Below are positions 2,863-39,587 of a stretch of DNA of 64,000 nucleotides, piece by piece. How positions within the stretch are numbered: the stretch's first letter is position 1; the number at the start of each line of letters is the position of its first letter. The position numbers and the translations under genes are program-made. The DNA is from Patellaria atrata CBS 101060 (lineage: Eukaryota), in assembly GCA_010093705.1 (NCBI GenBank), contig MU006090.1:1976022-2040021 (forward strand). Direction: 5' to 3'. Under the pieces are notes generated by a model. The model did not search any database and was not told the DNA's origin. It saw only the letters and a program-made list of their open reading frames with translations.

Positions 2863-3626
2863 GTTGCTTTTTTTGGGAGTTGGGGTATCGACTAAAATGG
2901 CGTTTTAGGGGGGGTGGGACCGAGGAACCGAAGATGTTTAGGGCGAAGGAGTGGAAGAATCCGGGTTAGGGTGGGTGGTGGTGGAAATACTTCTGTGCGT
3001 ATATACCCTGTGTTGATTTTTGGAGCGTTGGATGATAGGAGGGGGAGCTTGGGCCGTATTGTATATAATAAAGGATTGGGTTGTTGGTATGTATGGACGG
3101 GAGATATACTGTACTGTACCCCTTCAAGCATGTGAAGTGTCTGTGCGGATGGACCTGCTGTACAGTGCAGACCCTTTACATGGAAAGAGTCTTATATGCT
3201 CGAATAAAGTAATTAGGACCTATCCGACCGGAAAGTAGAAAATCTATTTCCAGAAGCTACTTATGCTTCGGCCCAGTATTAATCCGCAGTCCCAAATGAA
3301 CCCACTGAATAAAGCCGAGTAGGTTGCATTGAGGTTACGAAACTCGATCGTGGTTTTTACCAAGGTACGTGTTTACATAAGAAAGTCTATGGTATCCGCA
3401 TCAGGTCGAGGACTGAGATGCGCGAGTATGGGGGGATGCAGCTTAGTAGAGGAGCAAGAGAAAGGGGATTCTGGAACGTGGCACCTATGGACTTCTCCAT
3501 ATGTAATAAGGGTATCAGTTAAACATCCTTTGGTAGAGGCGGGATACTGACACTACGGAATTGTTCGAGTAGGTTCAAGTATTATTACCCTTTTGCGAAA
3601 TTATAGTACACCGAGATTTCCAGCAG

Positions 3627-4286
3627 NNNNNNNNNNNNNNNNNNNNNNNNNNNNNNNNNNNNNNNNNNNNNNNNNNNNNNNNNNNNNNNNNNNNNNNNNN
3701 NNNNNNNNNNNNNNNNNNNNNNNNNNNNNNNNNNNNNNNNNNNNNNNNNNNNNNNNNNNNNNNNNNNNNNNNNNNNNNNNNNNNNNNNNNNNNNNNNNNN
3801 NNNNNNNNNNNNNNNNNNNNNNNNNNNNNNNNNNNNNNNNNNNNNNNNNNNNNNNNNNNNNNNNNNNNNNNNNNNNNNNNNNNNNNNNNNNNNNNNNNNN
3901 NNNNNNNNNNNNNNNNNNNNNNNNNNNNNNNNNNNNNNNNNNNNNNNNNNNNNNNNNNNNNNNNNNNNNNNNNNNNNNNNNNNNNNNNNNNNNNNNNNNN
4001 NNNNNNNNNNNNNNNNNNNNNNNNNNNNNNNNNNNNNNNNNNNNNNNNNNNNNNNNNNNNNNNNNNNNNNNNNNNNNNNNNNNNNNNNNNNNNNNNNNNN
4101 NNNNNNNNNNNNNNNNNNNNNNNNNNNNNNNNNNNNNNNNNNNNNNNNNNNNNNNNNNNNNNNNNNNNNNNNNNNNNNNNNNNNNNNNNNNNNNNNNNNN
4201 NNNNNNNNNNNNNNNNNNNNNNNNNNNNNNNNNNNNNNNNNNNNNNNNNNNNNNNNNNNNNNNNNNNNNNNNNNNNNNNNNNNNNN
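3627..4286. other. Assembly gap (660 N)
   Basis: Run of N; it truncates the CFEM gene. Confidence 1.
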
Positions 4287-4480
4287 ATCTGAGAACTCGC
4301 AGCCGTCGGCGCTGAGGGTGGTGAGGAAGCAGTTGATCTATGGGATAGTTTTGTTAATATGAGTTGGGTGGAGGATGTTTCTTGGGAATATGGTGGACGT
4401 ACGGCGCATCTTGGCAAGTTGGAGATATCCTGTGCGTAGACGGCAGCGGCGAGAAGGGCAACGGCAGCGAAGGTCTTCAT
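4287..4480 (-). CDS. Secreted/cell-surface CFEM-domain protein, 5' part only (remainder in gap)
   Basis: Exon 1 4480-4403, intron 4402-4338 (GTACGT..TAG), exon 2 from 4337. Spliced product MKTFAAVALLAAAVYAQDISNLPRCAINCFLTTLSADGCEFSD: a signal peptide followed by the PxCAxxC-x-C-xxx-D CFEM pattern. Confidence 0.85.
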
Positions 4481-7400
4481 TTTGATGGAAGTTTTTGTTT
4501 TGAGCAGGTAGAATGGTCGGATCTGTGTGTTTATATAGTTTTGATAGGAAACGACTGGCGTAGTGTTTTGCTGTAAAAGATTTCGAGAAGGAGTTGACAG
4601 GTTTTCAACGAGATAGTTCCTTTAAGAGGTAAACAGGAACTAGGGCTGCGTTTTATGTATCCTGCCGTACCTGAGCATGTGGAGGCAATGAGCTGGGTGG
4701 CTTGGGCCTACTGGAGGCTTCGGCTTCACATGCGTGATTATGGTGATATCCTGTAAGTATTCTTCTGGACTTCGTGTTAGCGGAGGCAAATGTCCGATTC
4801 CACTCGAGCAGTCTCATCCAAACAACGATCAGGCATGTTCTCGACTAAAATCTCCAAAGTTTGAAATTAGAGGCACGCGATCGCAAAAGGGGTTTCCTCA
4901 TCGTGAAATGATGGGATCAAAGCAAAAGCTATAGTTCTGCAGAAAGACGTGAGGAAGCGGCATAACACCTGCAGATTGATTGAAAGCGCAAGGAACCGGT
5001 TGGTTCATGGTGACTTCGCGAAGAGAGAACCCGTTGAATGATTGGTGGACATGGCCGGCTTTGGTACGTTATGGGGAATAAGGTGTCGAAGAGAGTTTGT
5101 CGACTGTCGAGTTGATGTTACGTTCATCTAAAGCGGCGTTTCCTAAAAGATCGGGGATGACCGTTGTCACTTTTGTCATGTCGTCCGGTAAGATCGCCGA
5201 GAATTCTAAATAAGATTCTTTCCCCGGACATTGAAAGATTGTTTATGGTATATGATTGGTTGAATAGCGGTTAACCTTTCCAAGAGCTGGGGTGAGGAAG
5301 TGAGAAGGAAGTGAGAAAGCCTAGTGACCTACTCTATTCGTTTCCTAGCGTGAACAATTCGGTATGCTTGGATTCATTGCTGGATCCCCCGGATTCTTGG
5401 AATAAATGCCTATATAATCAGCTAACCTCTATCTGCAGTACTGCTCCGGTTCTAGAGAGTCGTAAAATTAGGCCAACATTATAGTTAGAAAGATTTGAAA
5501 ACGTTGGACACTACCCTTACTGGTTGTCTTTTTCGAGCGTACTTTCTCAGGTGTACTGCGATGTTTTGAGCAGTCAATAACGAATGGTGTCTCGTGGGAC
5601 TGTAAGCTGTGTAGAGGTTCTACAAAACCTGGCCTAAGGTACTACATCCGTGGCTAGTCTTGGCTGCGGTAATGTGCTTCCGCCACCATTATTCGCTGCA
5701 GTAGTCGCGGGCTCTTGCGGTAGAGAAGATGACAACCGCATACCTATCTCCGCAGTTTTATGATTCCCTATAATCAGGTAACCTCGTTGATCCATATATT
5801 GCTGTCTCTGTACCTGTGTCAACTTTGGTTCGGGAGGTACCGTAAGTATAGTGTAATCCATGCTTTGAGCTTACGGGCCAGTAAAATATTTTCAGAGCCG
5901 TAAATCCAAGTTCAGCCAGGTAAGTAAAGCACTTGTAGATGTGTAGCGCTCTCAATTGATAGGTTTGCATCATCTTTGCTCTCTCCCTCGTTGCTCTGAA
6001 TCTTGAATGGCTGGATGCCGCGAGTAATGTCGGTATACACCTTTAGTCGCTATGGTAGCTTTAGCGACTGGTTCATACCCTCGGCTTCATGTGCAGCGAT
6101 GGTGGCTTCTTAGTTGTTCCCGGAGCTGAATAATGAAATGGTGGTAGCTTTGAATAACCTGACCTCACAATACATTGAATAGTGAAATTTCAAGGGAAAA
6201 AAAGGAGAGCACAAATGGAGGGATGAAATGGTCTCCAAACTGAGAGTAGGAAAACATCGACAAGGGCACAACGTGACAATGGAAAGTCGGTTTGAATACA
6301 AGGTCAGTTTAAGAGCAACCAAGTAGTATAACACTCCGCTGATGCGTAGTATTACGACATATCGTAAGATTTTATTAGCCAATACAGAAATGTCGTATCA
6401 GGAGGGAGGTAATAGCCACAGTTGCTCGAATGGCATTCTCTCTTCTAAGATGTAATCTGTGACCGAACTCGTTTAAAATGCGCTACTATAAGATCGGAAA
6501 TAAGTTCTATTACGCCCGAAATCATGGCCCTGATATATTCGTGAGATGTTGCAAAGTATCATAGACTGTTGCAACTATAGTAACTCTGGGTTAAAATCCT
6601 AAAACATGGTGTATCATGGTCTTATATCTTCTCAAAGACTCGATCTAAAAGTAAAACAATATAAATTCTTTGTGCGATGTTGGCATATTGAAATGCATCT
6701 TTTTGGTGGTGCCAATTTTCGAAGTTGGAAAACTCTAGCAAACACCCAGTGCCAACACTATCCAATTTTCGTCTCAACGAACAAAATCAACAATACCTGA
6801 CAGCGTAACTATCTCTATATTAGATTCAACTAGAATCTGAAACTAGTATATCCATGAACCCACTCGGTACTTCCAAGCCATCAATTGATGCGGTGGTTGG
6901 ATCTACACGCCCAAATTCATAGATTCTGGTCTCTGGCTTCAACCTTCCCAAGACGTTCAACAATTTTATGCGGTTGGCCTAATTGGATTAGTTTGCTGTT
7001 TGCTTTCTTTGCGGTGGGGTAGCGAACAGCGGTGATGGGAGGAAAGGGGAGGAGTTGTAGGGCGGGGCCTAAGTGGTTCTGCCCGGCCGCGGTCAGAATT
7101 CCGTGAAAGGAAACAGCAATAAGCATGGAGGTAATAAGCAATCAAACCGAGAGTAGCTATCAGAATCTGGCGACGGATGGCGTAGTGGGAGCAATTCTCC
7201 CTCGGTACCGGCCTACCAATACGGGCACCGACCCAGATTCGACTCTGCAAAGGACCAGATTACCACATCTTCGGATGTGGGAACTGTTTTTGATATTTAA
7301 GAAAATTTATTTTTTGACTCTTTAGACGGCGTTTTTATTTGACCAGGAGTTTGCGTTGATTTTTTGGTAGTAGTGAGATTATCGGGAGAGGGGGAGCGGG

Positions 7401-27646: not shown

Positions 27647-30105
27647 ATGGCGAGTTACGACACGGACCTAGAGTTCGCGATGAAACTCCAGGCCGAAGAG
27701 AATGCTGGAATTAGGCAGGATTCTGCTGAGAGTTCTTGCGCTTACGGTTCTTCCTCCAGTCAGAGAAATCTTTCCGCGGATGAAGAGCTCGCTCGCCAAC
27801 TCCAAGAGGAGTTCGACCGCATGGAGATTGATGAACCCCAAGATACAATCATGAAGTCTGATAAGAAACCTTCCGTCGCCCATGATAATGACGATGAAAT
27901 ATTTGCGATGGAGCTCCAGCAAGAGTTTGACACCCCCCTTTCTTCAAATTCCAAGGGCAAGCAGGTTGCACATCCTCACTATCTCTCAAATAAGGAGGTC
28001 GGCTCTGAACTCAGTTCCCGGGCTCTACACCATGCGTTATCCAAATATATACGTACTGGCTGTTGGCGCTGTGGCCACAAGATTCTCGCTACAATGGATG
28101 CTGTTTCACGGCTGTTTGAGACGTGGATGAGATATAATGGTAAGCCATCGTAGTCTTCTATCCGTCTCCCTTTTTCTAATCTGTCGCAGGCATAGCCAGT
28201 TCTTCAATCCTATGTAGCGGATGTGCCGGCAACACTTGTTGGGGATGCGGCCAGCAAATTGATCAGAACCTTAGTCTTCTCGACCTCGGCGCCACTAAGC
28301 TGGGGTGGTGTTGCGACGATGGCCGTCTGTTCGTAATCTGGGTATTACTATCTGGATATGATCACAAACGATCGTGTGATAGGCACCGCGACGCCCTTGC
28401 TGCTTCTGCCTCTCAGCACCCAGCTAGGATGCCGCAAGGTGCTGGGCAAGGAACTAGACCCAGTGGCACCAGCTATAGTGGTGGCGGGTCTCCCTTCCTC
28501 TTCAACCCGGGGCATCCCTATTTCGCCGCAGGTCCTCCCTCGTTTTCCACTGGTCTTTCCCCTTTCCCCGCTACTTATACTTCCTATGCTTATCCTCCTC
28601 TCCATGGTTCCCCTTTCGCCCCTATTCAAACAGGTACTGGGTACGGAGTCCGCACCTCTCAGGTTGATGCCTTCCATAACGAAAATGCTGATCGCGCTGC
28701 TAAGTCCGGTGCTGAGGAGGATAAAATCGTCTCCCAGATCCTTATTCTCCTCGCAGTCCTCTTACCAAATATCGAAAATCAAGCGCATTTCGATCAAATC
28801 CCGCCGGAAGTCCTTGTACCCATGTTAAGAAAATCATCGTTCTTGGACAGAGTTGCAGAGCTCCTCGTGAATGATGCTCTGGAGGATATAACGAGTCGCT
28901 CTAGATTGTATCGGAACGTTTTAAGTTTCGTCCAGGTCCTTGGAAACCATTACGCTACCTTGGAACCAACCATCTTCCGCGAGAGGGACGACAAGGAAAT
29001 AGGAGAGAACCTATTGAACTTCTCTTTTGCGAAAACAATTCCACCTGAGAAAAGGAGGGAGCAATCGAAGGCCATCGCTACATGCTTAAAAAATCTATGC
29101 GTCCAGAGCTCCTTATACTTGCGAACTGTTCAACAGGTCACCGGTGACGTCGATACACAGAACACCTTATCTATTTGCAAAGAGATTATTGGGCTCGCCA
29201 CACACCTACTTGTCAACTCAGAGAAAGCTCTTGGAAAGAGCAACGACACTCTCTCCTGGTCAGACTGGCAAAAGGATAATGGCTTTACCGACGCTCCCGA
29301 CAGGGCCATTCTTGAACAGCACCATTACGCCCGTGACGCCAAAAAGCTCCAGGGGGCGCATAAAAACCGTATGAGACAATTGACTCTCGAATTAACGCGT
29401 CTCAAGACAGGTCTCCCTCCGGGAATCTTCGTGCGGCATGGCGTGTCGCGTATTGACGTGATGAAAGTTCTCATAATCGGACCCAAAGACACGCCCTACG
29501 AAGGCGGTCTTTTTGAATTCGATCTCTTCTGCGATGATAAATATCCCTTTGAGCCGCCTAAAATGAACTTCAAGACCACAGGCGGCGGTCTGTTATCCTT
29601 CAACCCGAATCTTTACCCCAGCGGTAAAGTTTGTCTCTCACTCCTCGGAACATGGGCCGGGGAGCAGTGGCGTCCTGGTCAATCGACCATTCTGCAGGTC
29701 CTCGTATCTCTTCAAGCGATGGTGTTTTGCGATGAGCCGTACTGCAATGAACCCGGTAGGGATCACCTCCAGGGAACGGAAGCATCTAAGGCAGCAAACA
29801 AGAAGTACCAGGCTATGACTATCAAGCATGCTATGATCGACTGGCTTCGTGAAGGCTATGATCCTTTATGGGGTGATATTGTTCGAGAGCACTTCCTGCG
29901 CAATGGTGATCAGATTGCGCAGACGATAGGAATATGGGCGAGTGATAGGACCACCTATCCCGGAGGACAGCGGTTTACTACACATGGCACGCGTCGGGAG
30001 CGTCCTGTGAGTTCCAGTTCTCTGCTTAAATTGAAAGGTGTGTTTCAAACGGAGTTGGCTGCGTTCAAGAACAAGTTGAAGCACCTCGGCCGGGAGACCA
30101 TATGA
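27647..30105 (+). CDS. Large ubiquitin-conjugating (E2) enzyme with a BIRC6/UBE2Z-type UBC domain and N-terminal ubiquitin-binding-like motifs
   Basis: Exons 27647-28139 and 28190-30105. UBC domain IGPKDTPYEGGLFEFD...FNPNLYPSGKVCLSLLGTW with the catalytic Cys present. Three DxxxAxxLQxE helices and a Cys cluster in the N-terminal part. Confidence 0.88.
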
Positions 30106-32461
30106 GTATCCATCTTCCCCAACCTGCGTTCTCAGCAGGCCACATCTGCTCTCCAATATCTGTATGTTTATCTTGCTGTGACTCGAAATGTCAGAAAGCG
30201 CTATTCCGTGATATCTTCGATGAAGACGTCTGGTGCGCAAGACAAAATTCCTTGGACGATAAGTGCTGGCTGGGTATATGAGATAGCAATGATCACATTC
30301 TCTATTAGCGTTTGCACCCAACGATGCTTTGGACGTAGAGACCTTGCATCAGTCCACCTTGATGGACAAAACTATTGTGACTATCATGCAAGCTTCAGAA
30401 ACACCAACGACCTATCGAACACTTTCCACCCACACGTATCATAGAAACAAGCAATCGTAAACGGGATTCGACGCCTACGTCGTAGTATTTCAAGGTAATC
30501 CCATGCTTGCTGCATTGTAGTCTTACCTTACTTCCCCAAACCTCATCTCTCAACCCCAAAATTCTTGCTAAGAAAGGAATTATTTACACAATACAGAGAT
30601 CAGACTAGCCATAGAACAAGGAGTAATAGGGCATCCCGTCTGTTCTGCCACGAAGGGTCCTGTACACACCGCAGCAAATTGATCAAAGTTATGATTCTGC
30701 GTTCTCTTTTAAGCTTCTATAACCTTATACGCCACGTGCGAGCACAGAATAGTCCCAGTAATCGTAAAACTCATAACAGTCAACAAATAGCGGGAGGTAC
30801 TTAGTCTCCCATTCCGACCCAATTTTTGAAGTCCATCGGGCCTTGCAGTACTCCCAATAACCCGGATACCATCCAGATCGATGCCAGTCTATGACTGGGA
30901 TGATCTAAGGGTTCAGACCACGGGATATGAGAATATTGCTCGGATGTAAGTCAGCATGCATGAATACGATTGGAACCCCGTCCGGTAAAAAGGAGCGGTA
31001 TGGATGGGGTGATCGTTCCCCTTTATAATAGGCATAGGGGCCATAAGCAGTGGAAAACTAGTCGTGGAATTCGGACGTGCTTTTGAAGGGACATCCCGTT
31101 GGAGAACAACTGTTCGTGAAGATGGCATCTAATAGCGGCTGCCGACCCACATGCCCTACGTATTGCATTAGAGAGCAAGATATTAAGAGTTATTATACCT
31201 GACTAAGCACTCAGTCGGATATATATGCCTGTCCTCGTCCAGTCTCTTCTAGAGCAGACACTGCAATTCTACATCTCACTTTCCGTGCCCTTACCACCTA
31301 ACAAGAGTATATGGGATTATGGGTGATTCATAATGGGATTCGTCCGATATAAAAGAGAAATGGCTGACGAATGGACCTAAGTAACCGTGTTCTTACTAAT
31401 AAAAGGTTGTGAGAAATGCTGTTTGAGCGAGCGCCATGCGCTAATTATTTGACGTAGTTGTCCGTACGACGTCTTTCTCTCTTCCTCAGCCCAGGTTCTC
31501 CCAACCTGTCTCGAGTGTAATTCCTTCCATGAGTTCCATATATATAAATGTTTGTTTACCGTCTTTGCACCATCCATAAACCTCAGGAACAGGTACCCGC
31601 CCAGAGAATTGTCTATGGACAAGATAGAGACATTGACCCTCAGCTAGAGTGATTCCGGTTCCTTATTTTACTAATAGACCCAATGGCTTGAAAATCACTG
31701 GTGGCGGCCGTGTGATGAGCTGAGAACACGGCGAAGTTGACTGGCTTACCACCTGTCTCACCTCTGCTGGAGATAGCAACTCGAGCGGCGCACTGGGTCG
31801 TTTGAAAAAAGATGACTCGCAAAAGGTGACATTTTCATTACAGGGGAATGGGTGTTCAAGGTTCCCGGCCATAGGTATAGGTCCTATGCGAAAGTCATAT
31901 TAAGGTAAACGGGGGAACTGGATTAAGTGCAGGCGGCGGGATAGTGCGAGCTCATGTGACAAACTCTACCTTAGGTAACGTTTGTAACCGTGTTGAGCTA
32001 CGTATACTCTTTTGCTGCGGCTTTCTCTTTTATGGAAGGATGGTTAGCTGATGGTTTGACGCCGAGGTGTACCCGTAACAACCAGTAGTCTACAGAATCA
32101 GCTTATACGAGAGCGATCAAATGAATGTTTATGTCGGGTGGAGTTAAGTGACGGACGAGAGTAGACGAAAGGTGGTAGAGGGACAGAGGAGGAGTTCAGG
32201 TAGCCTGGAAACCGTCTACGAGTAATATAACTGCTGAAGGAATAAGACCAAACAATCGAACTAGGTGGGTAAGATACTGTGAAGCTAGAAAAGCACCGGA
32301 GAAAGTCAAGTTTAGAAATATCACATTGAGTTTTCTACCTTACTACCAAAGGATGAGCGCCAAGGTTCCCATGGATAGGAACTCTCAAACGCCAAAATAG
32401 CCAGACCACCGACAGCAGATGAGCCACCATGTCTAATCAATCGTGAAAGCTAAATCACAAC

Positions 32462-35221
32462 CTATGCCATCCTAACCTGATCCCCGAACGGTACACCCTC
32501 CACCATACCCTCGTCCATCTCGTCATCATCTTCTAACTCCTCGTCCTCCTCTTCGAATCCTGTCTCCACACCCGCCTCTCTAATTCTCTCCTTCATCTCT
32601 TCTCTCTTCTCGGCCTGCCATCTAGTTAATGCTGCAGCTGCGTGTACCCTGAACCCAAAAACCCTAGGCTCATACCGCCGCTGGCTCTTAGTAGGTATGA
32701 GATTGGGATAGACCTGGAATAAGACATTGTGGAACGAAGAGCCAAAGTACGCGCCGTCAATCGCGGCATGCCGTGAGGACTTCGGGTTATAAAGGTCCTC
32801 GCAGCGAGCGCAGTAGAGTTTTACGGGCGACATGTTGGGGATATCGTGTTGGCCCATGGGGAGGAGAGGTTGTTGGTCGCACATTACGCGGGGGCATTTG
32901 CCAAAGTCTGCCTTTTTATATTTTTCGAGCTGTAAGATGGTCAATATACGCGTCTAGGGTAAAGGACATGGTTTTGTGATATACCATTTTTGCGAGTCCT
33001 CGGGTGGTCACGATGTAGCGAGCGTGTACAAGACCATAGAGATGTCGTGCGGACTTCTCGATTTGCTCTCGCATCTCATCATCGCATTCGAGGTCGAACA
33101 CATCTGTAACAAGATCTAGAGAGTACTGGTAGTAGTTCACTTCGGTTTGTAGCCCCGTCAGGTTGAAGCGGTCGGTTAGGTATTCTTCGTCGATCTCGCA
33201 GAAATATTCGTTGCCGCGTGACGATATAAACTATACATTGAAATCAGCATGCGTATTGGACGTGCAAAACTGGAACATAAAAATCAAATGAGAAATGTCA
33301 GGTTGAAGGTGCTTTTCCAACAGTTTAATAAATGAGAAGCTTCATCAAAAAGCCGAGAAGTGATTTGGGATAAGCAGATTTCCGCCGTATAGTTGGGATC
33401 CGGACAAACCAGCAGAGAATAGGTTTCGCAAGTGATCGTCGTTATCTTTGAGAATAGTCCCATAGGGGGTATATCAAAATCAAGCTCCAGATTTTCGAAT
33501 CCAATCACACCATGTCCGCGGTGCTTGGGGATTATTTGGAGTGTCCGTATCGGGATTTCCCTAACGATTACAAGGCCGACTGAACAAGGATAAGGACCTA
33601 CTGGAAACATGGACGGAACATCCGCAGACTCATTCTCATCCCAATCCGAAGAATCATCAAGATCATCAGTCCCACCAGAGGTGCTCGAGTCCGGCGCCCC
33701 GCGACACTGCGTAATTCCGTCGAGGTTCGGGATCTCGCCTTTTATCCGTGGAATTCGAGACACATCCGTATGGTCGCTTCCGTAGGAGTAGTAGTTTTCG
33801 GACAAATTCCAGTCCTCAATGTCGGCGTCTTCAGAGATAGCTAAAGACGACTCAGTATCGCTGTCGCTCGGGCTATCGCTCGGGCTATCACTCGGACTAG
33901 AGGCGCTTGGCGGAGGGTTGATTGTATTAAAAGACTGTTCAGAAGACTCATCGTGCTCGGGATTCTGGGAATACTCAGGACTCTTAGAATACTCAGGGCT
34001 CTTGAAATATTCAGGACGCTTGGATAGTTCAGGATTCCCAGATTGATTAACACTCTTAGATCGTTTAAGACCCTCGGGTTGACTAGGACTCTTGGATTGT
34101 TCAACTCTCCTGCGTTTTTGAGTGGTCTCTGATTGCTGAGAGATTTCCTCTTGCTCTGGAGTCTGAAACCGCTCTGCAGTCTCGGGTTTTTGGGGAGTCT
34201 CTAGGACCTGACCTGGAGTCAATGGTTGTCCTGGGCTCGAATAGCGCGCTATATTGTCGTATTGCAAAGGGATCACCGCCCCTCCCGGAGTATCTTCAAA
34301 TTGCCCTGGAGTCGGCGGATAGTCTGGAGTCCTAAGCCCATGTCGGTACCTCTCGTGTTGCTCTGGAGTCACAGGTCGCTGAGACTGCTGCGTTTGTGCC
34401 TCATCTCCGATCTGGTCAATGTCCATTTCAACCCCCTCTTTGTGGTTTGTAGGAACGAGAATATGCATAGATGAATGGAAAATGATATTAGGTCTTCCGA
34501 CATCCACAAGAAATATCTCCCTCCACGTTTGCTCACGATAGGGACCAGTCTGAGCTTGACGGTTGACCGGCTGAAGAACGCCGCTGTTCCTCGCCTGCAT
34601 ATCGCGGTTGTCTGATAGGTCTTTGACTCGCAGATTCAAGGTTGACACTCGCGTGCTAAGTACTCTTACTGTGCCGGTCAAACCTGGTCGTCCTAGGGAA
34701 TGAACGGGAGAAGAGTTGGGCGTGCCAAATCGACGACGTAGGGATTTGAAGAAGTTATATGGACCCCCTGCAGCAGCAGTAGGTGGAGAAGGCGGCCTAC
34801 TCCCAAGGTCATCGCCATTACTTACCTCTTCCAAGTCTATTTCGGCTGATCCAGCTCTCGCGACAAGTGACGAATCCGTTAAAAGGGCCCCAGACATAAT
34901 ATTCGATTCACCAGGGCCCACATTTTCTTGCCCTTCCATCGAAACAAGAATACGTGGCCAGAAAATGTTAAGAAGCCGTCCGAATGCAAGTCAAAGAATG
35001 TGAGTTTGGGAGGCAGTTAAACATGAAGAACTAAATCTCTGGTTCGTAGACGAAGGCACCTTCTGCCTCAGGTGTCCCTTTGGAATACAAACATAGCGAA
35101 TGTACAGAATAGGAAAGAGCTAACTCGAACAGAACGAATAAGAAGTATATTGAAATGCGCCTACCCAGTCTCGCCAGTAACTTGTATAATCACTGTCCGT
35201 CTCACTGTTGAAATCGTCCAT
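32462..35221 (-). CDS. CKB2: Casein kinase II regulatory (beta) subunit
   Basis: Exons 35221-35165 (MDDFNSETDSDYTSYWRDW), 33230-32985 (FISSRGNEYFCEIDEEY...LYGLVHARYIVTTRGLAKM) and 32929-32462 (FGKCPRVMC...KLYCARC...IDGAYFG). Intron 1 is 1934 nt (GTAGGC..GCTGAT..TAG). The CK2 beta family is certain; the paralogue name CKB2 rather than CKB1 is less so. Confidence 0.93.
33284..34939 (-). CDS. Orphan 551-aa ORF nested in intron 1 of the CK2 beta gene, same strand
   Basis: ATG-initiated, stop-free 1656-nt frame lying wholly inside intron 35164-33231. Ser/Pro/acidic low-complexity centre with frame-preserving repeats, and a more hydrophobic C-terminal ~110 aa. No family recognised. Confidence 0.6.
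   Translation of the reverse strand: MEGQENVGPGESNIMSGALLTDSSLVARAGSAEIDLEEVSNGDDLGSRPPSPPTAAAGGPYNFFKSLRRRFGTPNSSPVHSLGRPGLTGTVRVLSTRVSTLNLRVKDLSDNRDMQARNSGVLQPVNRQAQTGPYREQTWREIFLVDVGRPNIIFHSSMHILVPTNHKEGVEMDIDQIGDEAQTQQSQRPVTPEQHERYRHGLRTPDYPPTPGQFEDTPGGAVIPLQYDNIARYSSPGQPLTPGQVLETPQKPETAERFQTPEQEEISQQSETTQKRRRVEQSKSPSQPEGLKRSKSVNQSGNPELSKRPEYFKSPEYSKSPEYSQNPEHDESSEQSFNTINPPPSASSPSDSPSDSPSDSDTESSLAISEDADIEDWNLSENYYSYGSDHTDVSRIPRIKGEIPNLDGITQCRGAPDSSTSGGTDDLDDSSDWDENESADVPSMFPVGPYPCSVGLVIVREIPIRTLQIIPKHRGHGVIGFENLELDFDIPPMGLFSKITTITCETYSLLVCPDPNYTAEICLSQITSRLFDEASHLLNCWKSTFNLTFLI
33867..34040. repeat. Short tandem repeats within the nested ORF (12-nt and 18-nt units)
   Basis: CTCGGGCTATCG-like 12-mers encode SPSD x3; ...AATACTCAGG... 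18-mers encode PELSKR/PEYFKS/PEYSKS/PEYSQN. Confidence 0.8.
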
Positions 35222-35712
35222 AATCTCGATAGTCGCCAGCTTGAAGATTGGAAAAGAAGGGAACTTGTTAGAAGTTTGTAAGACTCGTGTTAAATGAAAG
35301 ACAGGGTACTGATCGCTGTATATTGTGTAAGCCTTGGCGCAGTTGATGGTGGGCATGAACTTGGAGTGGGAGGTGTGAAGTTGGATGAGTTCTTGGACTC
35401 CGGTGACCCGCTCGGCAGTTTGCGCACTTTTATAGATAGAACTATCGCCACTGCATACATGTTTAGAAGGAGATATTATCCCCTATTTTATCATGGGTTC
35501 GTAATCTTCCCGTTCATGTTCACTTTTCGTACACATAATACGGACTATAATTTGACTATTGAAAGATTCTCATAGTCTGGACGATATAATCTTAAGTACA
35601 GTACCGTTGGGGACAATGGGTACGTACCCGGTGTTACTATATGGCCGAGTGGGGAAACCCCTTTTAGATGAGTGTACAGTAGTCGTAGAATATCTTGTAA
35701 GTCATAGAACAA

Positions 35713-38092
35713 TCATTGACCCTCAGTCAATATCCTCGTCCAGTCAAACTTCCGCCATCGCTTTTTAAACCCCTCTACCCTTCTATCGCCACCCCTTTCC
35801 CATCGACCCTGCCGCTTGATGACTTCTGGACCGACATCCAGAATACCTCCAATGATATCTCGTGCGAATAGATCACCCTTAGGCCATCGATTGCTGTCTT
35901 CCACTATATGTCCCAGACCGCCGTCAAGCTCAAACCAAACCTGAAGTGTAATCAGTTGCGGCAGATTGAAATGATACAGAGAAAAGCTTACGTGAAAATA
36001 AGGCATCTCCTTCGCGATGGTCCTACGGAAAGCTAGTTTTCCGAGACCCTCGCGCGACTTCTTCAGCGTATCAATAAGCTTCTTATGCTGTGTCCACTCT
36101 TCATCGGCTGCTAGAATAGCCTCCTTGAAGAAGGCAGGGATCGTCTCTCCCACCCTATAAGGTAAAGGGACAACCATCATTGCCGCATGTCGTTTCCGGT
36201 GTGGTGTAGCTGCATTTTCATAGAAGATGACGTCCCTGCCTTGGTCGTGATACATGCGGGTTAAGGACTTCATGAAGTTCTGTCTCGTAGTCAGCAAACA
36301 TATTTCACTACATTATTGAAGATACCTACCCTGATTTCCTCCCACTCATCATCGTCACACTCCAGAAGATTTGTCCGATGCTGTATGGGGATTATGCATG
36401 CGCCACCCTCACTAACCTCAGGATGCGTGGGCAGTGTAAGGTATGTTCGTGTAGCAAGTGAAATAACTGGTGCAACAGGAGGTTTGTCGGTATCCTCGTG
36501 AAAGCAAAGGGGACACGAATCGAGGATTCGGGTCATCTTTTGGACTTCACTTATCGCCGTGTTCCGTAGATTGATCTCAGACTTCTGTATGCGCTTCGCC
36601 AACTTATTGGCATTTTCATCCATATAGTCCAAGTCGTTCTGCCGAATTTGGTTAGAATAGAATAACGCGAAGAATCAATGGGTAGCCTTACGTCGAACTT
36701 TGCGTCCTTCGCAATCCTCTCAGCGAAGGCTCTTCCATCGCCACCAGGTACACCCCTAGTACGCTTTTCTTGCCTAACCATATCTTCAATGCTCATATCT
36801 TCATTCTCCTCAACAAGACCCCTTTCACGTCCGCGTTTATTATCGATAGTTTTCACTTCGGCTTTCCTGTCAGTGAGCATGCGGCTGTCCATTGCACCCA
36901 GGAAAACCATTTCTGGATCTTTGCGGTTAATAAAACTTGCCATAGCTGCGTTATACTCTGCTTCGAGCTCGGCGGCTTTAGGGTCCTTCTTCATTTTCGC
37001 CTTCAACACTTGAGCCGCCATCTTATTCATTGTGTTTTGATCGAGAAGAACGGTTCGTGCAGCAGGGGACTTTTCTCGCATAATCTCTCCCTGAGGAAGA
37101 GGCTCATCTTGTCGTTCGTCTTCGCTCCGCCTCCTTGGTCTCCTCTTCTCCTCCTCGGCCAACCTTTCCTGGTATAATTCCCCGCTGGGCCTTATCTTAC
37201 CCACATAATCCTTCCCGTACATTTGCCGTCGATCGAGCTCAACCTCTTCTTCTCTTGCATCGTCAAACAAGCGGAGATCCCCGTACTGCTTCTCAGCAAT
37301 TTCTTCAACAGGTCTATCATTCGCTTTCGCCATCCTATAGACGTTTTTGAGTTTTGTCATACGCCATTGTGATCCAGGATCTCCAAATTCATAGTTGACA
37401 ATATGTTCTTTCTCTACATTACAGTTATTCTTGTCATCTCCCTCTTCCTTCAGGTCCCGAAGGTGATGGTTGATCTCATTCTTGTGAATTTTCCTTTCAA
37501 AAGCATCCTGTGCATCGCCAAGACCGCGAGATTCTGATTTCTTTTCACGCTGTACGTAATCGACATCAAGAGCGGAGGGTGCTTCCATCCATAGGTCGCG
37601 CTTGAGATCTGCTTCCTGCGCATCCTGTATACGCTTGTCCAGGATCTCTTCTCCCGGCGGTGCAATCTCCGTCCCTTTTTCTATATATGCATCCTCTTCA
37701 GGATCGGGTGATCTTGTTTTACTTCTATCCTTCTTGTGTTTCCTCTTGCGCTCGGGGTTATCGTCGTCTACCTCGCGTCTCGAACGCTTGTGCCGATGAC
37801 GGGATTCCCGAGCTTCGTCATTGTGCTTAGAACTATGATGTCTTGATGAATGACCGGACCTATGGTGATGCCTGTGCTTATCCTCGTCCTGGAGTTGAAT
37901 GCATTAGCCGGATCCTGCAAAATGCAGATTGCTTAATAGAATAGACGGTAGGAAAAGCTGCAAACTTACCTTTGAACGATGATGTCGATATCTATCTCTG
38001 CTATGACTGCGATCACGCTTTGTATGGGACTCCCGATGCGACTCTTTCCCTTTATTCTCCGCCAATTCTTTCTCAAAGTCTTCCAAAGTCAT
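35713..38092 (-). CDS. cwf19: Cwf19/CWF19L2 spliceosome-associated protein (CwfJ C-terminal domains)
   Basis: Exons 38092-37970, 37888-36692, 36638-36330, 36279-35992 and 35940-35713. Motifs GDPGSQWRMTKL, EDMSIEDMVRQEK, LDSCPLC, HRTNLLECDDDEWEEIRNF, MPYFHVWFELDGGLGH and C-terminal WRKFDWT. Confidence 0.92.
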
Positions 38093-38321
38093 AATCGGTA
38101 AAAGATGAGATGTAGTTGAGTTAAGGTCAGGTCTGATCGAGGCCAACGGTTGATCTCCAACCGAGGCCGACAATTATTGACGTCGGCGGTCCCTGTAGGG
38201 CCAGTGGCTAGCTTCCCGGCGGTGGGCTTGGGGACTGACCTCACAAACTTATTTGAACCTCACGCATGAAAAACTACAAAGAGACACACAGCACACGACA
38301 ATACAAGATAGATTATCAACT

Positions 38322-39587
38322 ATGGCAGAATCTCGTAAACCACCCGTAGCTATCGTCTGTGTCGGTATGGCCGGCAGCGGCAAGACAACCTTTATGCAGC
38401 GCATCAACTCTTACCTCTACTCTACCAAAGAGGCACCTTATGTCATTAACTTAGATCCAGCAGTACGCACAGTGCCATTCGACAGTAATATCGACATCCG
38501 CGACTCTGTCAACTACAAAGAGGTCATGAAGCAATACAATCTCGGGCCAAACGGCGGCATCCTCACCTCACTAAACCTGTTCGCGACGAAAATCGATCAG
38601 ATACTAGAACTACTGGAAAAGCGCACAGGAGTCACAGGCTACGGGTCGAAGCAAGAAGCACCAGCGGAACCAACACCCGAACAAAGGCGCATCCAACACA
38701 TCCTAGTAGATACACCAGGCCAGATCGAAGTCTTCGTGTGGTCTGCAAGCGGAGACATACTTCTCTCATCCCTAGCATCCACGTTTCCTACCGTGATTGC
38801 GTACATCATAGACACACCGCGCACAGCATCCACATCCACGTTCATGAGCAACATGCTTTATGCCTGCAGTATACTCTACAAAACGCGGTTACCCATGATT
38901 CTCGTATTCAATAAAACGGACGTCAGAGACGCAGAATTCGCGAAGGAATGGATGACAGACTTCGAGGCATTCCAGGCCGCGCTGAAGGAAGAGCAAGAGC
39001 AAGGGACTTTTGGTAGCACTGAAGGTAGTGAAGCTGGAGGGTACGCGCAGGGGAGCAGTGGGTACATGGGTAGTCTTCTTAACAGCATGAGCTTGGTGTT
39101 CGAAGAGTTCTACAGACATCTTAGCGTTGTAGGCGTAAGTTCCATGACCGGACAAGGCGTCGAAGACTTTTTCGAAGCTGTTGCCCAGAAAGCGGAGGAG
39201 TTTGAGCGAGACTATAAGCCCGAATTGCAGAATCAACATGCACTACGGGAAAAGGCGAAGCAGGATCGCCGTGACAGGGAACTGGGAAGGATGATGAGCG
39301 ACATGAACATGGAGGGGTCAGGAACCACGAGTAAAAAGTCTAGAACAGGGCGAAAGGAAGATGCTGAAACCATCAGCGACCTAGAAGACGAAGAGGAGAA
39401 TGCGGAGCAAATGGGTGAACCCGCGGAACGAATAGGAGATCCGGACGACTACGATTCAGAGGACATGGACGAAGGTAATGACGACGAGGGGCTCAGTACG
39501 CGGTACAAGCGGGCATTAGAAGACCACAATCCTACTCAAGAAGACCTCAGCTTTGCAAGATATGTACAGAGAGCGAGCATGGGATGA
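38322..39587 (+). CDS. NPA3: GPN-loop GTPase 1 (RNA polymerase II biogenesis), intronless
   Basis: [10 protein letters not shown]-loop, [32 protein letters not shown] and an acidic C-terminal tail. First true ATG at 38322. Confidence 0.96.

Follow-up and report, generated by a model that had tools for sequence, protein, structure and literature searches.

In filamentous fungi, introns usually measure 50–100 nucleotides (nt), and protein-coding genes inside spliceosomal introns are considered rare. Animal genomes, for example those of Drosophila and human, have nested genes within large host introns that span many kilobases; most of these nested genes are on the opposite strand, and transcripts of their own have been demonstrated. 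At the INK4a/ARF locus, two promoters and alternative first exons yield unrelated proteins, both of which read a shared exon in different frames. Group I and group II introns, which are self-splicing introns of organelles or ribosomal DNA, carry open reading frames (ORFs) for homing endonucleases or maturases with LAGLIDADG, GIY-YIG, or reverse-transcriptase domains. For each same-strand locus, annotation pipelines generally retain a single model and, for this reason, nested same-strand genes go unseen. Here we describe an ORF of 551 codons that lies wholly inside the first intron of the gene for the CK2 regulatory (beta) subunit, which is of the Ckb2 type, on the same strand as its host, in Patellaria atrata CBS 101060, a Dothideomycete of the order Patellariales. 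The whole stretch of DNA analyzed (the “window”) is 64,000 nt long, all coordinates are window positions, and CK2 beta is encoded by the minus strand at 35221–32462. One paper (PMC4363200) calls nested genes rare in the context of fungal gene prediction, and the literature, as far as it was accessible, held no description of an ORF in a CK2 beta intron or of same-strand nested genes in Pezizomycotina.

The host gene and the nested ORF are arranged as follows.

35221–35165, minus strand: CK2 beta exon 1, 19 codons (MDDFNSETDSDYTSYWRDW), with the donor GTAGGC; the N-terminus of the public protein P0004 is identical
35164–33231, minus strand: CK2 beta intron 1, 1934 nt, GTAGGC...CTGAT...TATAG
34939–33284, minus strand: nested ORF, 551 codons plus TGA, ATG-started
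33247–33243, minus strand: CTGAT branch-like motif, 13 nt upstream of the intron 1 acceptor
33230–32985, minus strand: CK2 beta exon 2 (FISSRGNEYF...GLAKM), based on Pfam and P0004
32984–32930, minus strand: CK2 beta intron 2, 55 nt, based on the sequence and P0004
32929–32462, minus strand: CK2 beta exon 3, stop included, based on Pfam

The nested ORF occupies 85.6% of intron 1, with its ATG 225 nt past the donor (intron nt 226) and its stop 53 nt from the acceptor and about 37 nt upstream of the CTGAT motif. The original prediction for this locus had placed exon 1, the start of exon 2 (33230), the 1934-nt intron, and the ORF at the same positions, all of which were verified, and its figures of about 86% for the filled share, 225 nt for the distance from the donor, and about 35 nt between the stop and the branch point agree with these measurements.

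The host gene model is supported at several points. The Pfam family CK_II_beta (PF01214) matches the exon 3 piece with 127 bits and the exon 2 piece with 89 bits (cut-off 27), and P0004 (“casein kinase II subunit beta, partial”, from Patellaria atrata CBS 101060) is 100% identical to the window gene and joins exon 1 to exon 2 in the same way. The intron 1 acceptor reads ...TGTATAG followed by TTT at 33231/33230, and exon 2 is preceded by ...CTGATTTCAATGTATAG. Among related fungi, exons 1, 2, and 3 are joined and fully spliced in all seven cDNA-like contigs, which therefore support the gene model. Contigs from two DNA sequencing runs cover the stretch with zero differences and no joints; because the runs are probably the source data, this agreement speaks for the self-consistency of the assembly only and is not independent support. 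P0004, which is marked partial, ends in ...DDDEMDE, and the window frame runs 15 codons further (GMVEGVPFGDQVRMA, 32462–32506) to the stop at 32462.

The statistics of the nested ORF resemble those of coding sequence. The frame stays open for 568 codons, compared with a mean of 120 and a maximum of 292 codons in 2000 dinucleotide shuffles of the intron, and the analytic probability of such a run is about 6e-13. The other five frames over the same stretch contain 19–44 stops. A codon model was trained on 13 confident coding stretches of the window, with four non-coding stretches as controls. Using all 64 codons, the nested ORF scored 0.175 bits/codon in its own frame and below zero in the other two, while the 13 coding stretches ranged from 0.08 to 0.27 and the four controls were negative in every frame. 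With sense codons only, the score was 0.100 (shuffles −0.027 ± 0.028, maximum 0.054, n = 500), and that of codons 1–446 was 0.119. The GC content at codon positions 1, 2, and 3 (0.56, 0.47, and 0.46) is like that of neighboring genes. Cumulative coding likelihood along the ORF peaks at codon 494, and a sharp switch from coding to non-coding sequence at codon 446 was rejected on this ground. Taken together, the nested ORF very probably is, or recently was, coding.

Within the intron and the ORF, four further segments can be distinguished.

35164–34940, minus strand: 5′ non-coding intron segment, 225 nt, GC 42%, T-rich; candidate promoter or leader of the nested ORF
34411–33860, minus strand: repeat-rich middle of the ORF, about codons 177–360, with three SDSP units (12 nt), three SPEY-type units (18 nt), and dispersed TPEQ/TPGQ
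33601–33287, minus strand: hydrophobic C-terminal tail, codons 447–551, with weak codon bias and intron-like base composition
33601–33596, minus strand: consensus-type donor GTAGGT, in phase 0 after codon 446, from which exon 2 can be reached in frame (371 nt)

The 5′ segment contains two short ATG-started frames and has a negative coding score in all frames. Its two ATGs compare with about three expected from base composition, and they are thus not depleted. The second ATG of the nested ORF, at codon 15, has an A at −3 and a better context than the first. Tandem repeats with periods of 12 and 18 nt, both of which had been predicted to preserve the frame, were found to do so, as do the dispersed TPEQ/TPGQ units. 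The ORF was probably enlarged by these internal repeats (codons 177–360), which occupy only about one third of it. An exact 12-nt direct repeat, CTTCAACCTGAC, is present at 33297–33308 (the end of the ORF, STFNLTFLI) and at 33157–33168 (exon 2, RFNLTG), encoding FNLT; chance alone would give about 0.14 repeats of this kind in 2.2 kb, and the idea of a meaningful link between the ORF and exon 2 was dropped as probable coincidence.

The encoded product is rich in Ser, Pro, Glu, and Asp, hydrophilic to about residue 450, and hydrophobic afterwards. It would be a largely disordered protein that ends in a hydrophobic stretch of about 100 residues. Alignment-free AlphaFold2 models had a predicted local distance difference test (pLDDT) score of 34 over the full length and 37 over residues 430–551, values that are uninformative either way. 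There are 17 S/T-P sites compared with 9.9 expected from shuffles. The product as a cluster of CK2 target sites was considered and rejected, as it has 9 S/T-x-x-D/E sites where shuffles predict 14.9.

Database searches returned no relative of the nested ORF. A phmmer search of 1.84 billion representative proteins gave no match, not even the ORF itself, and hence no bacterial, viral, or other relative among them, and a word-index search of proteins of 303–965 amino acids (aa) was also negative. Pfam reported 0 families at E ≤ 1, with no transposase, endonuclease, or reverse-transcriptase domain, as the original prediction had expected from the lack of transposase, homing-endonuclease, and reverse-transcriptase motifs. 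In the ESM Atlas, the best scores for the whole protein and for residues 440–551 were 0.83–0.86, which the tool itself rates as leads only; the best E-value against PDB sequences was 0.34, and 83 pattern matches in JGI metagenome contigs yielded zero confirmed cases. The public protein collection contains 3 of 10 other window ORFs, which come from a 2.32-Mb contig of the same genome. Because these are present while the nested ORF and its self-match are missing, the deposited annotation evidently does not contain it, and its absence from public proteins is an annotation gap.

The first intron of CK2 beta was compared among 80 fungal loci, which came from a scan of metagenome contigs with the peptide of exon 2. 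The CK2 beta protein is so conserved that its identity values are too coarse to give these loci taxonomic labels. Exon 1 and a GT donor after it were identified in 60 of the 80 loci, with the intron at the same codon in 60/60 and a length of 68–802 nt; the other 20 comprise the seven cDNA-like contigs and 13 loci with too little upstream sequence. The intron 1 donor is GTAGGT in 14 of the 60. Among 49 distinct introns, 36 are at least 270 nt long (270–802 nt), and a long first intron is therefore a trait of the CK2 beta gene in many Pezizomycotina and not a peculiarity of this genome, and the window intron is 2.4 times the longest intron of a relative.

Several side observations concern the same introns. 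In four genomic loci (L033, L039, L057, and L058), CK2 beta intron 2 is absent and the long intron 1 is kept, indicating loss of intron 2 in some lineages. A conserved DNA element (ATGCGCCGC..GTGCCTGTTC) lies about 25–50 nt past the intron 1 donor in L051 (4669–4805) and L062 (5372–5505) and also within the first ~60 nt of intron 1 of L019, L061, and L035; the window intron has nothing similar. The first 136 intron nt of L051 and L062 are 80% identical, and the ORF part has no blastn match. The element may be a regulatory or promoter element. In addition, the conserved exon 1 is missing from several public CK2 beta models of other fungi (among P0014, P0020, P0032, P0045, and P0066), whose first residues are translated from the last part of intron 1, e.g., MLTNVLQ or MGEQ joined to FISS; P0066 instead keeps intron-coded residues. 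These models are probably annotation errors due to the long intron, with alternative first exons as the other option.

Some long first introns of relatives hold an open frame on the sense strand that is longer than shuffles allow. The longest open frame per strand was compared with 400 dinucleotide shuffles (p ≤ 0.05), and it was significant on the sense strand in 13 of the 36 long introns and on the antisense strand in 2. In a positional control with the 29 introns of at least 420 nt, the signal was confined to the 3′ portion:

last 400 nt of the intron: sense 13/29, antisense 1/29
first 400 nt of the intron: sense 2/29, antisense 2/29
400 nt upstream of exon 1: sense 0/23, antisense 1/23

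As some loci are close kin (L069/L071, L012/L014, L009/L023, L019/L061, and L051/L062), the signal corresponds to about 11 independent lineages. The layout recurs among the 13 ORF-bearing introns: the first ATG is at intron nt 214–294 in nine (226 in the window), the stop is 14–40 nt before the acceptor in ten, and in five the stop is a TAA or TGA within the CTRAC branch motif.

Intronic ORFs of relatives in three lineages are under purifying selection. The ratio of nonsynonymous to synonymous substitution rates (dN/dS) was 0.42 for L051/L062, 0.39 for L009/L023, and 0.35 for L019/L061, compared with 0.76–0.93 in a column-shuffle null; the fractions of the null at or below the observed value were 0.024, 0.016, and 0.004, respectively. 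Shifted frames of the three pairs gave 0.71–2.6, and differences by codon position sum to 74, 91, and 118. Indels within the shared ORF parts of the three pairs are 3, 9, and 15 nt only, and those in the 5′ parts of the same introns are 1, 1, 7, 19, and 1 nt; 1, 3, 1, 1, 4, 1, 2, and 1 nt; and 1, 16, and 1 nt. The L051 and L062 ORFs have lost their blastn match and retain a protein match of 42% over 104 aa. A profile of these two ORFs (“family A2”) recovered nine further metagenome “hypothetical proteins” with 37–97% identity and the conserved core DAQDAVEQALCDADLRISRTRFY; none of the nine belongs to a Pfam family. The pair L069/L071 is too alike for a coding test. Intronic ORFs of different lineages have no detectable relation to each other.

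The window ORF likewise has no detectable sequence relation to family A2. The hhalign probability against the family A2 core was 0.1%, and the hidden Markov model (HMM) of the family had no sense-strand match on the window intron at E ≤ 10. A W..SDVPF-like motif that the window ORF and family A2 would share just upstream of their candidate donors was considered and was unsupported by hhalign; one family A2 member has Ile at the GT-bearing Val codon. The description of the window ORF as an orphan thus holds for its sequence and fails for its position, as many relatives have sense ORFs in the 3′ portion of this intron, some of them under purifying selection. The search of intron 1 of CK2 beta orthologs for same-strand ORFs, which the original prediction had proposed, found such ORFs, with dN/dS of 0.35–0.42 in three pairs, and none of them resembles the window ORF.

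On balance, the nested ORF probably is one of a class of intronic ORFs, defined by their position, that many Pezizomycotina carry. The reading that we prefer, though tentatively and with slightly less than even confidence, is that it is a genuine, native, and fast-evolving ORF that belongs to this class and is transcribed from within the intron. It is most likely the local version of fast-evolving ORFs, perhaps of common descent, that start about 215–295 nt past the donor and reach the branch-point region, greatly lengthened here by repeats. An internal start of transcription, taken by itself, is somewhat more doubtful; it would lie within the first ~225 nt of the intron. An RNA started there could not splice intron 1 because the acceptor would be present and the donor missing, and it would be translated from the intronic ATG. 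RNAs started upstream of exon 1 would have the whole ORF spliced out and give CK2 beta, so that the locus would produce two unrelated proteins from two transcription starts. A broader proposal is that CK2 beta intron 1 is an old, conserved cradle of a second gene across Pezizomycotina, with a sense ORF that starts about 220–290 nt past the donor, runs into the branch point, and evolves too fast for resemblance between lineages, and that is expressed only when intron 1 is unspliced, through either an internal start or retention. We regard this proposal as rather unlikely. If true, one locus would give either a kinase regulator or an intronic protein, and the 551-aa ORF of the window, enlarged by repeat expansion, would be the largest version known.

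Several observations weigh against the preferred reading. The nested ORF shows no similarity to introns or intronic ORFs of relatives by tblastn, blastn, hhalign, or HMM, and it is their layout that suggests common descent. None of the 80 loci is a close relative, the closest having about 70–78% nucleotide identity in the CK2 beta coding sequence, and the introns of the nearest loci by DNA are shorter (371 nt in L032 and L042, 501 nt in L039) with a weak ORF signal or none (sense-ORF test, p = 0.05 for L032 and 0.35 for L039). No significant sense ORF was present in 23 of the 36 long introns. In L012/L014, which are 96% identical, a 1-nt indel shifts the ORF frame and the shared part has no Met, and neither L029/L057 nor L039/L058 shows conservation of the ORF frame. 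As for the window ORF itself, its first ATG has a T at −3, and its last 105 codons score 0.017, not above shuffles (p = 0.44), with an intron-like GC content of 44%. Finally, an intron-started transcript would carry CK2 beta exons 2–3 and the spliced intron between them as a 3′ untranslated region (UTR), which is an awkward design.

The ORF could also reach the ribosome through intron retention, which we consider improbable. CK2 beta transcripts that keep intron 1 would use exon 1 as a 33-codon upstream ORF (uORF), since the unspliced exon 1 frame stops at 35120 as had been predicted, and translation would reinitiate at 34939. The same strand and the shared transcription unit make retention the simplest route of the ORF into RNA, and the ORF ends just short of the splicing signals, as in relatives. 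On the other hand, the exon 1 ATG has a strong context (A at −3, G at +4), the two short frames of the 5′ segment bring the number of uORFs to be passed to three, which speaks against efficient scanning from exon 1, and neither the undepleted ATGs of the leader nor the complete splicing of the relatives' cDNA-like contigs fits retention well. Because a retention transcript must pass the exon 1 ATG and two short frames, an internal start in the T-rich 225-nt segment is more economical. A CK2 beta cassette exon, which the original prediction had also thought unlikely, was rejected: the stretch from the in-frame stop at 34991 to the ATG contains no AG, and codons 1–115 contain no phase-0 YAG accompanied by a pyrimidine tract and a branch motif, so that joining at the 5′ end is excluded. 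The accompanying claim that no convincing donor lies near the end of the ORF, however, overlooked the phase-0 GTAGGT at codon 447. Codons 1–446 might be an alternative first exon, spliced from this donor at 33601 to the acceptor at 33231, either alone or beside the free ORF, to give an isoform of about 683 residues in which a disordered N-terminal extension replaces the first 19 residues of CK2 beta. The donor is in phase 0 with exon 2 and matches the intron 1 donor of the 14 relatives noted above, codon bias past it falls to the level of shuffles with intron-like base composition, and the remaining 371 nt are within the length range of intron 1 in relatives. Nevertheless, the 105 codons past the donor contain no stop in frame (7 and 5 in the other two frames; chance about 0.006), the coding likelihood peaks at codon 494 rather than 446, about one phase-0 GTRNGT is expected in 1656 nt (two are observed), and the six ORFs of relatives that were examined share no conserved phase-0 donor with G at +5. 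For these reasons the alternative first exon is a minority explanation, and the isoform would also lack the conserved SYWRDW segment; we judge it slightly less probable than retention.

Two further explanations deny that the ORF is a native working gene. It might be a recent repeat-driven or dying open frame that is transcribed only as intron and not effectively translated, a view to which we give about the same low standing as retention. The lack of a homolog, the absence from public annotation, the low complexity with pLDDT of 34–37, the weak start context, and the frameshift in the intronic ORF of one related pair are all in its favor. Against it, a 568-codon run without selection would be expected to decay quickly, native-like codon usage extends over about 450–490 codons, repeats make up too little of the ORF (about one third), and ORFs at the same place are under purifying selection in three other lineages. 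A foreign or mobile insertion into an ancestrally shorter intron, whether a transposon, a retrogene, or a horizontally acquired gene, is very improbable: the nested ORF is itself intronless and the window intron exceeds all those of relatives, but the ORF has native codon usage, none of the domains of mobile elements named above, no relative among the 1.84 billion representatives, and no second copy within the 64-kb window, and no terminal inverted repeats, target duplications, or poly(A) remnant were found around it.

A CwfJ-family gene (35713–37903, minus strand) lies directly upstream of CK2 beta on the same strand, with a spacer of only 491 nt to exon 1, and Pfam also identified a GPN-loop GTPase (ATP_bind_1; 38199–39584, plus strand) and a ubiquitin-conjugating enzyme (28180–30102, plus strand). 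The original prediction put every other intron of a protein-coding gene in the window at about 50–110 nt. On a loose check, CK2 beta intron 2 (55 nt) falls in this range, and a heuristic intron scan of the window returned nine short candidates of 50–86 nt; the long candidates of the scan are unfiltered noise and unreliable. An Rfam search of 32000–36000 gave only a sub-threshold mir-196 match (24.8 bits, cut-off 55.4), which was taken as chance. The window contains 660 N, and open frames of very low G+C at 3551–4621 suggest an N run (assembly gap) at about 3551–4360.

If the intronic ORFs are expressed, one transcription unit serves both an essential, highly conserved signaling gene and a second gene that evolves fast and whose frame overlaps the splicing signals of the intron. 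Such a locus would provide a tractable case for the study of splicing versus alternative intron use, and it would show how new or fast-evolving proteins persist within introns. There is also a consequence for annotation, as the long intron 1 misleads gene callers and several public CK2 beta models are without exon 1.

Compared with the described systems, the P. atrata locus combines familiar features in a different arrangement. Like the nested genes of animals, it has a complete ORF that lies wholly within a host intron and is removed by host splicing; unlike them, the host is a compact fungal gene, the ORF is on the same strand and covers 86% of the intron, reaching as far as the splicing signals, and it is known from sequence alone. 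The proposed expression resembles that of INK4a/ARF in having two transcription starts, shared downstream exons, and two proteins, whereas here the nested ORF stops short of the shared exons, which would be 3′ UTR only, and the second promoter is one that we infer. A sense-strand ORF inside an intron is also typical of group I and group II introns, but the intron here is a nuclear spliceosomal one (GT...AG with a CTRAY branch motif) and its ORF has no homing-endonuclease, maturase, or reverse-transcriptase domain. The lack of a detectable homolog, the disordered and repeat-rich product, and the fast turnover of ORFs at the same place in relatives are shared with fungal orphan and de novo genes. 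Unlike in those, the position is conserved across diverged fungi and ORFs there are under purifying selection, which together speak for an old feature that evolves fast and against a single birth event. Nested intronic genes as such are already known; what is new is a case that is on the same strand, fills its intron, and recurs by position in a compact fungal gene.

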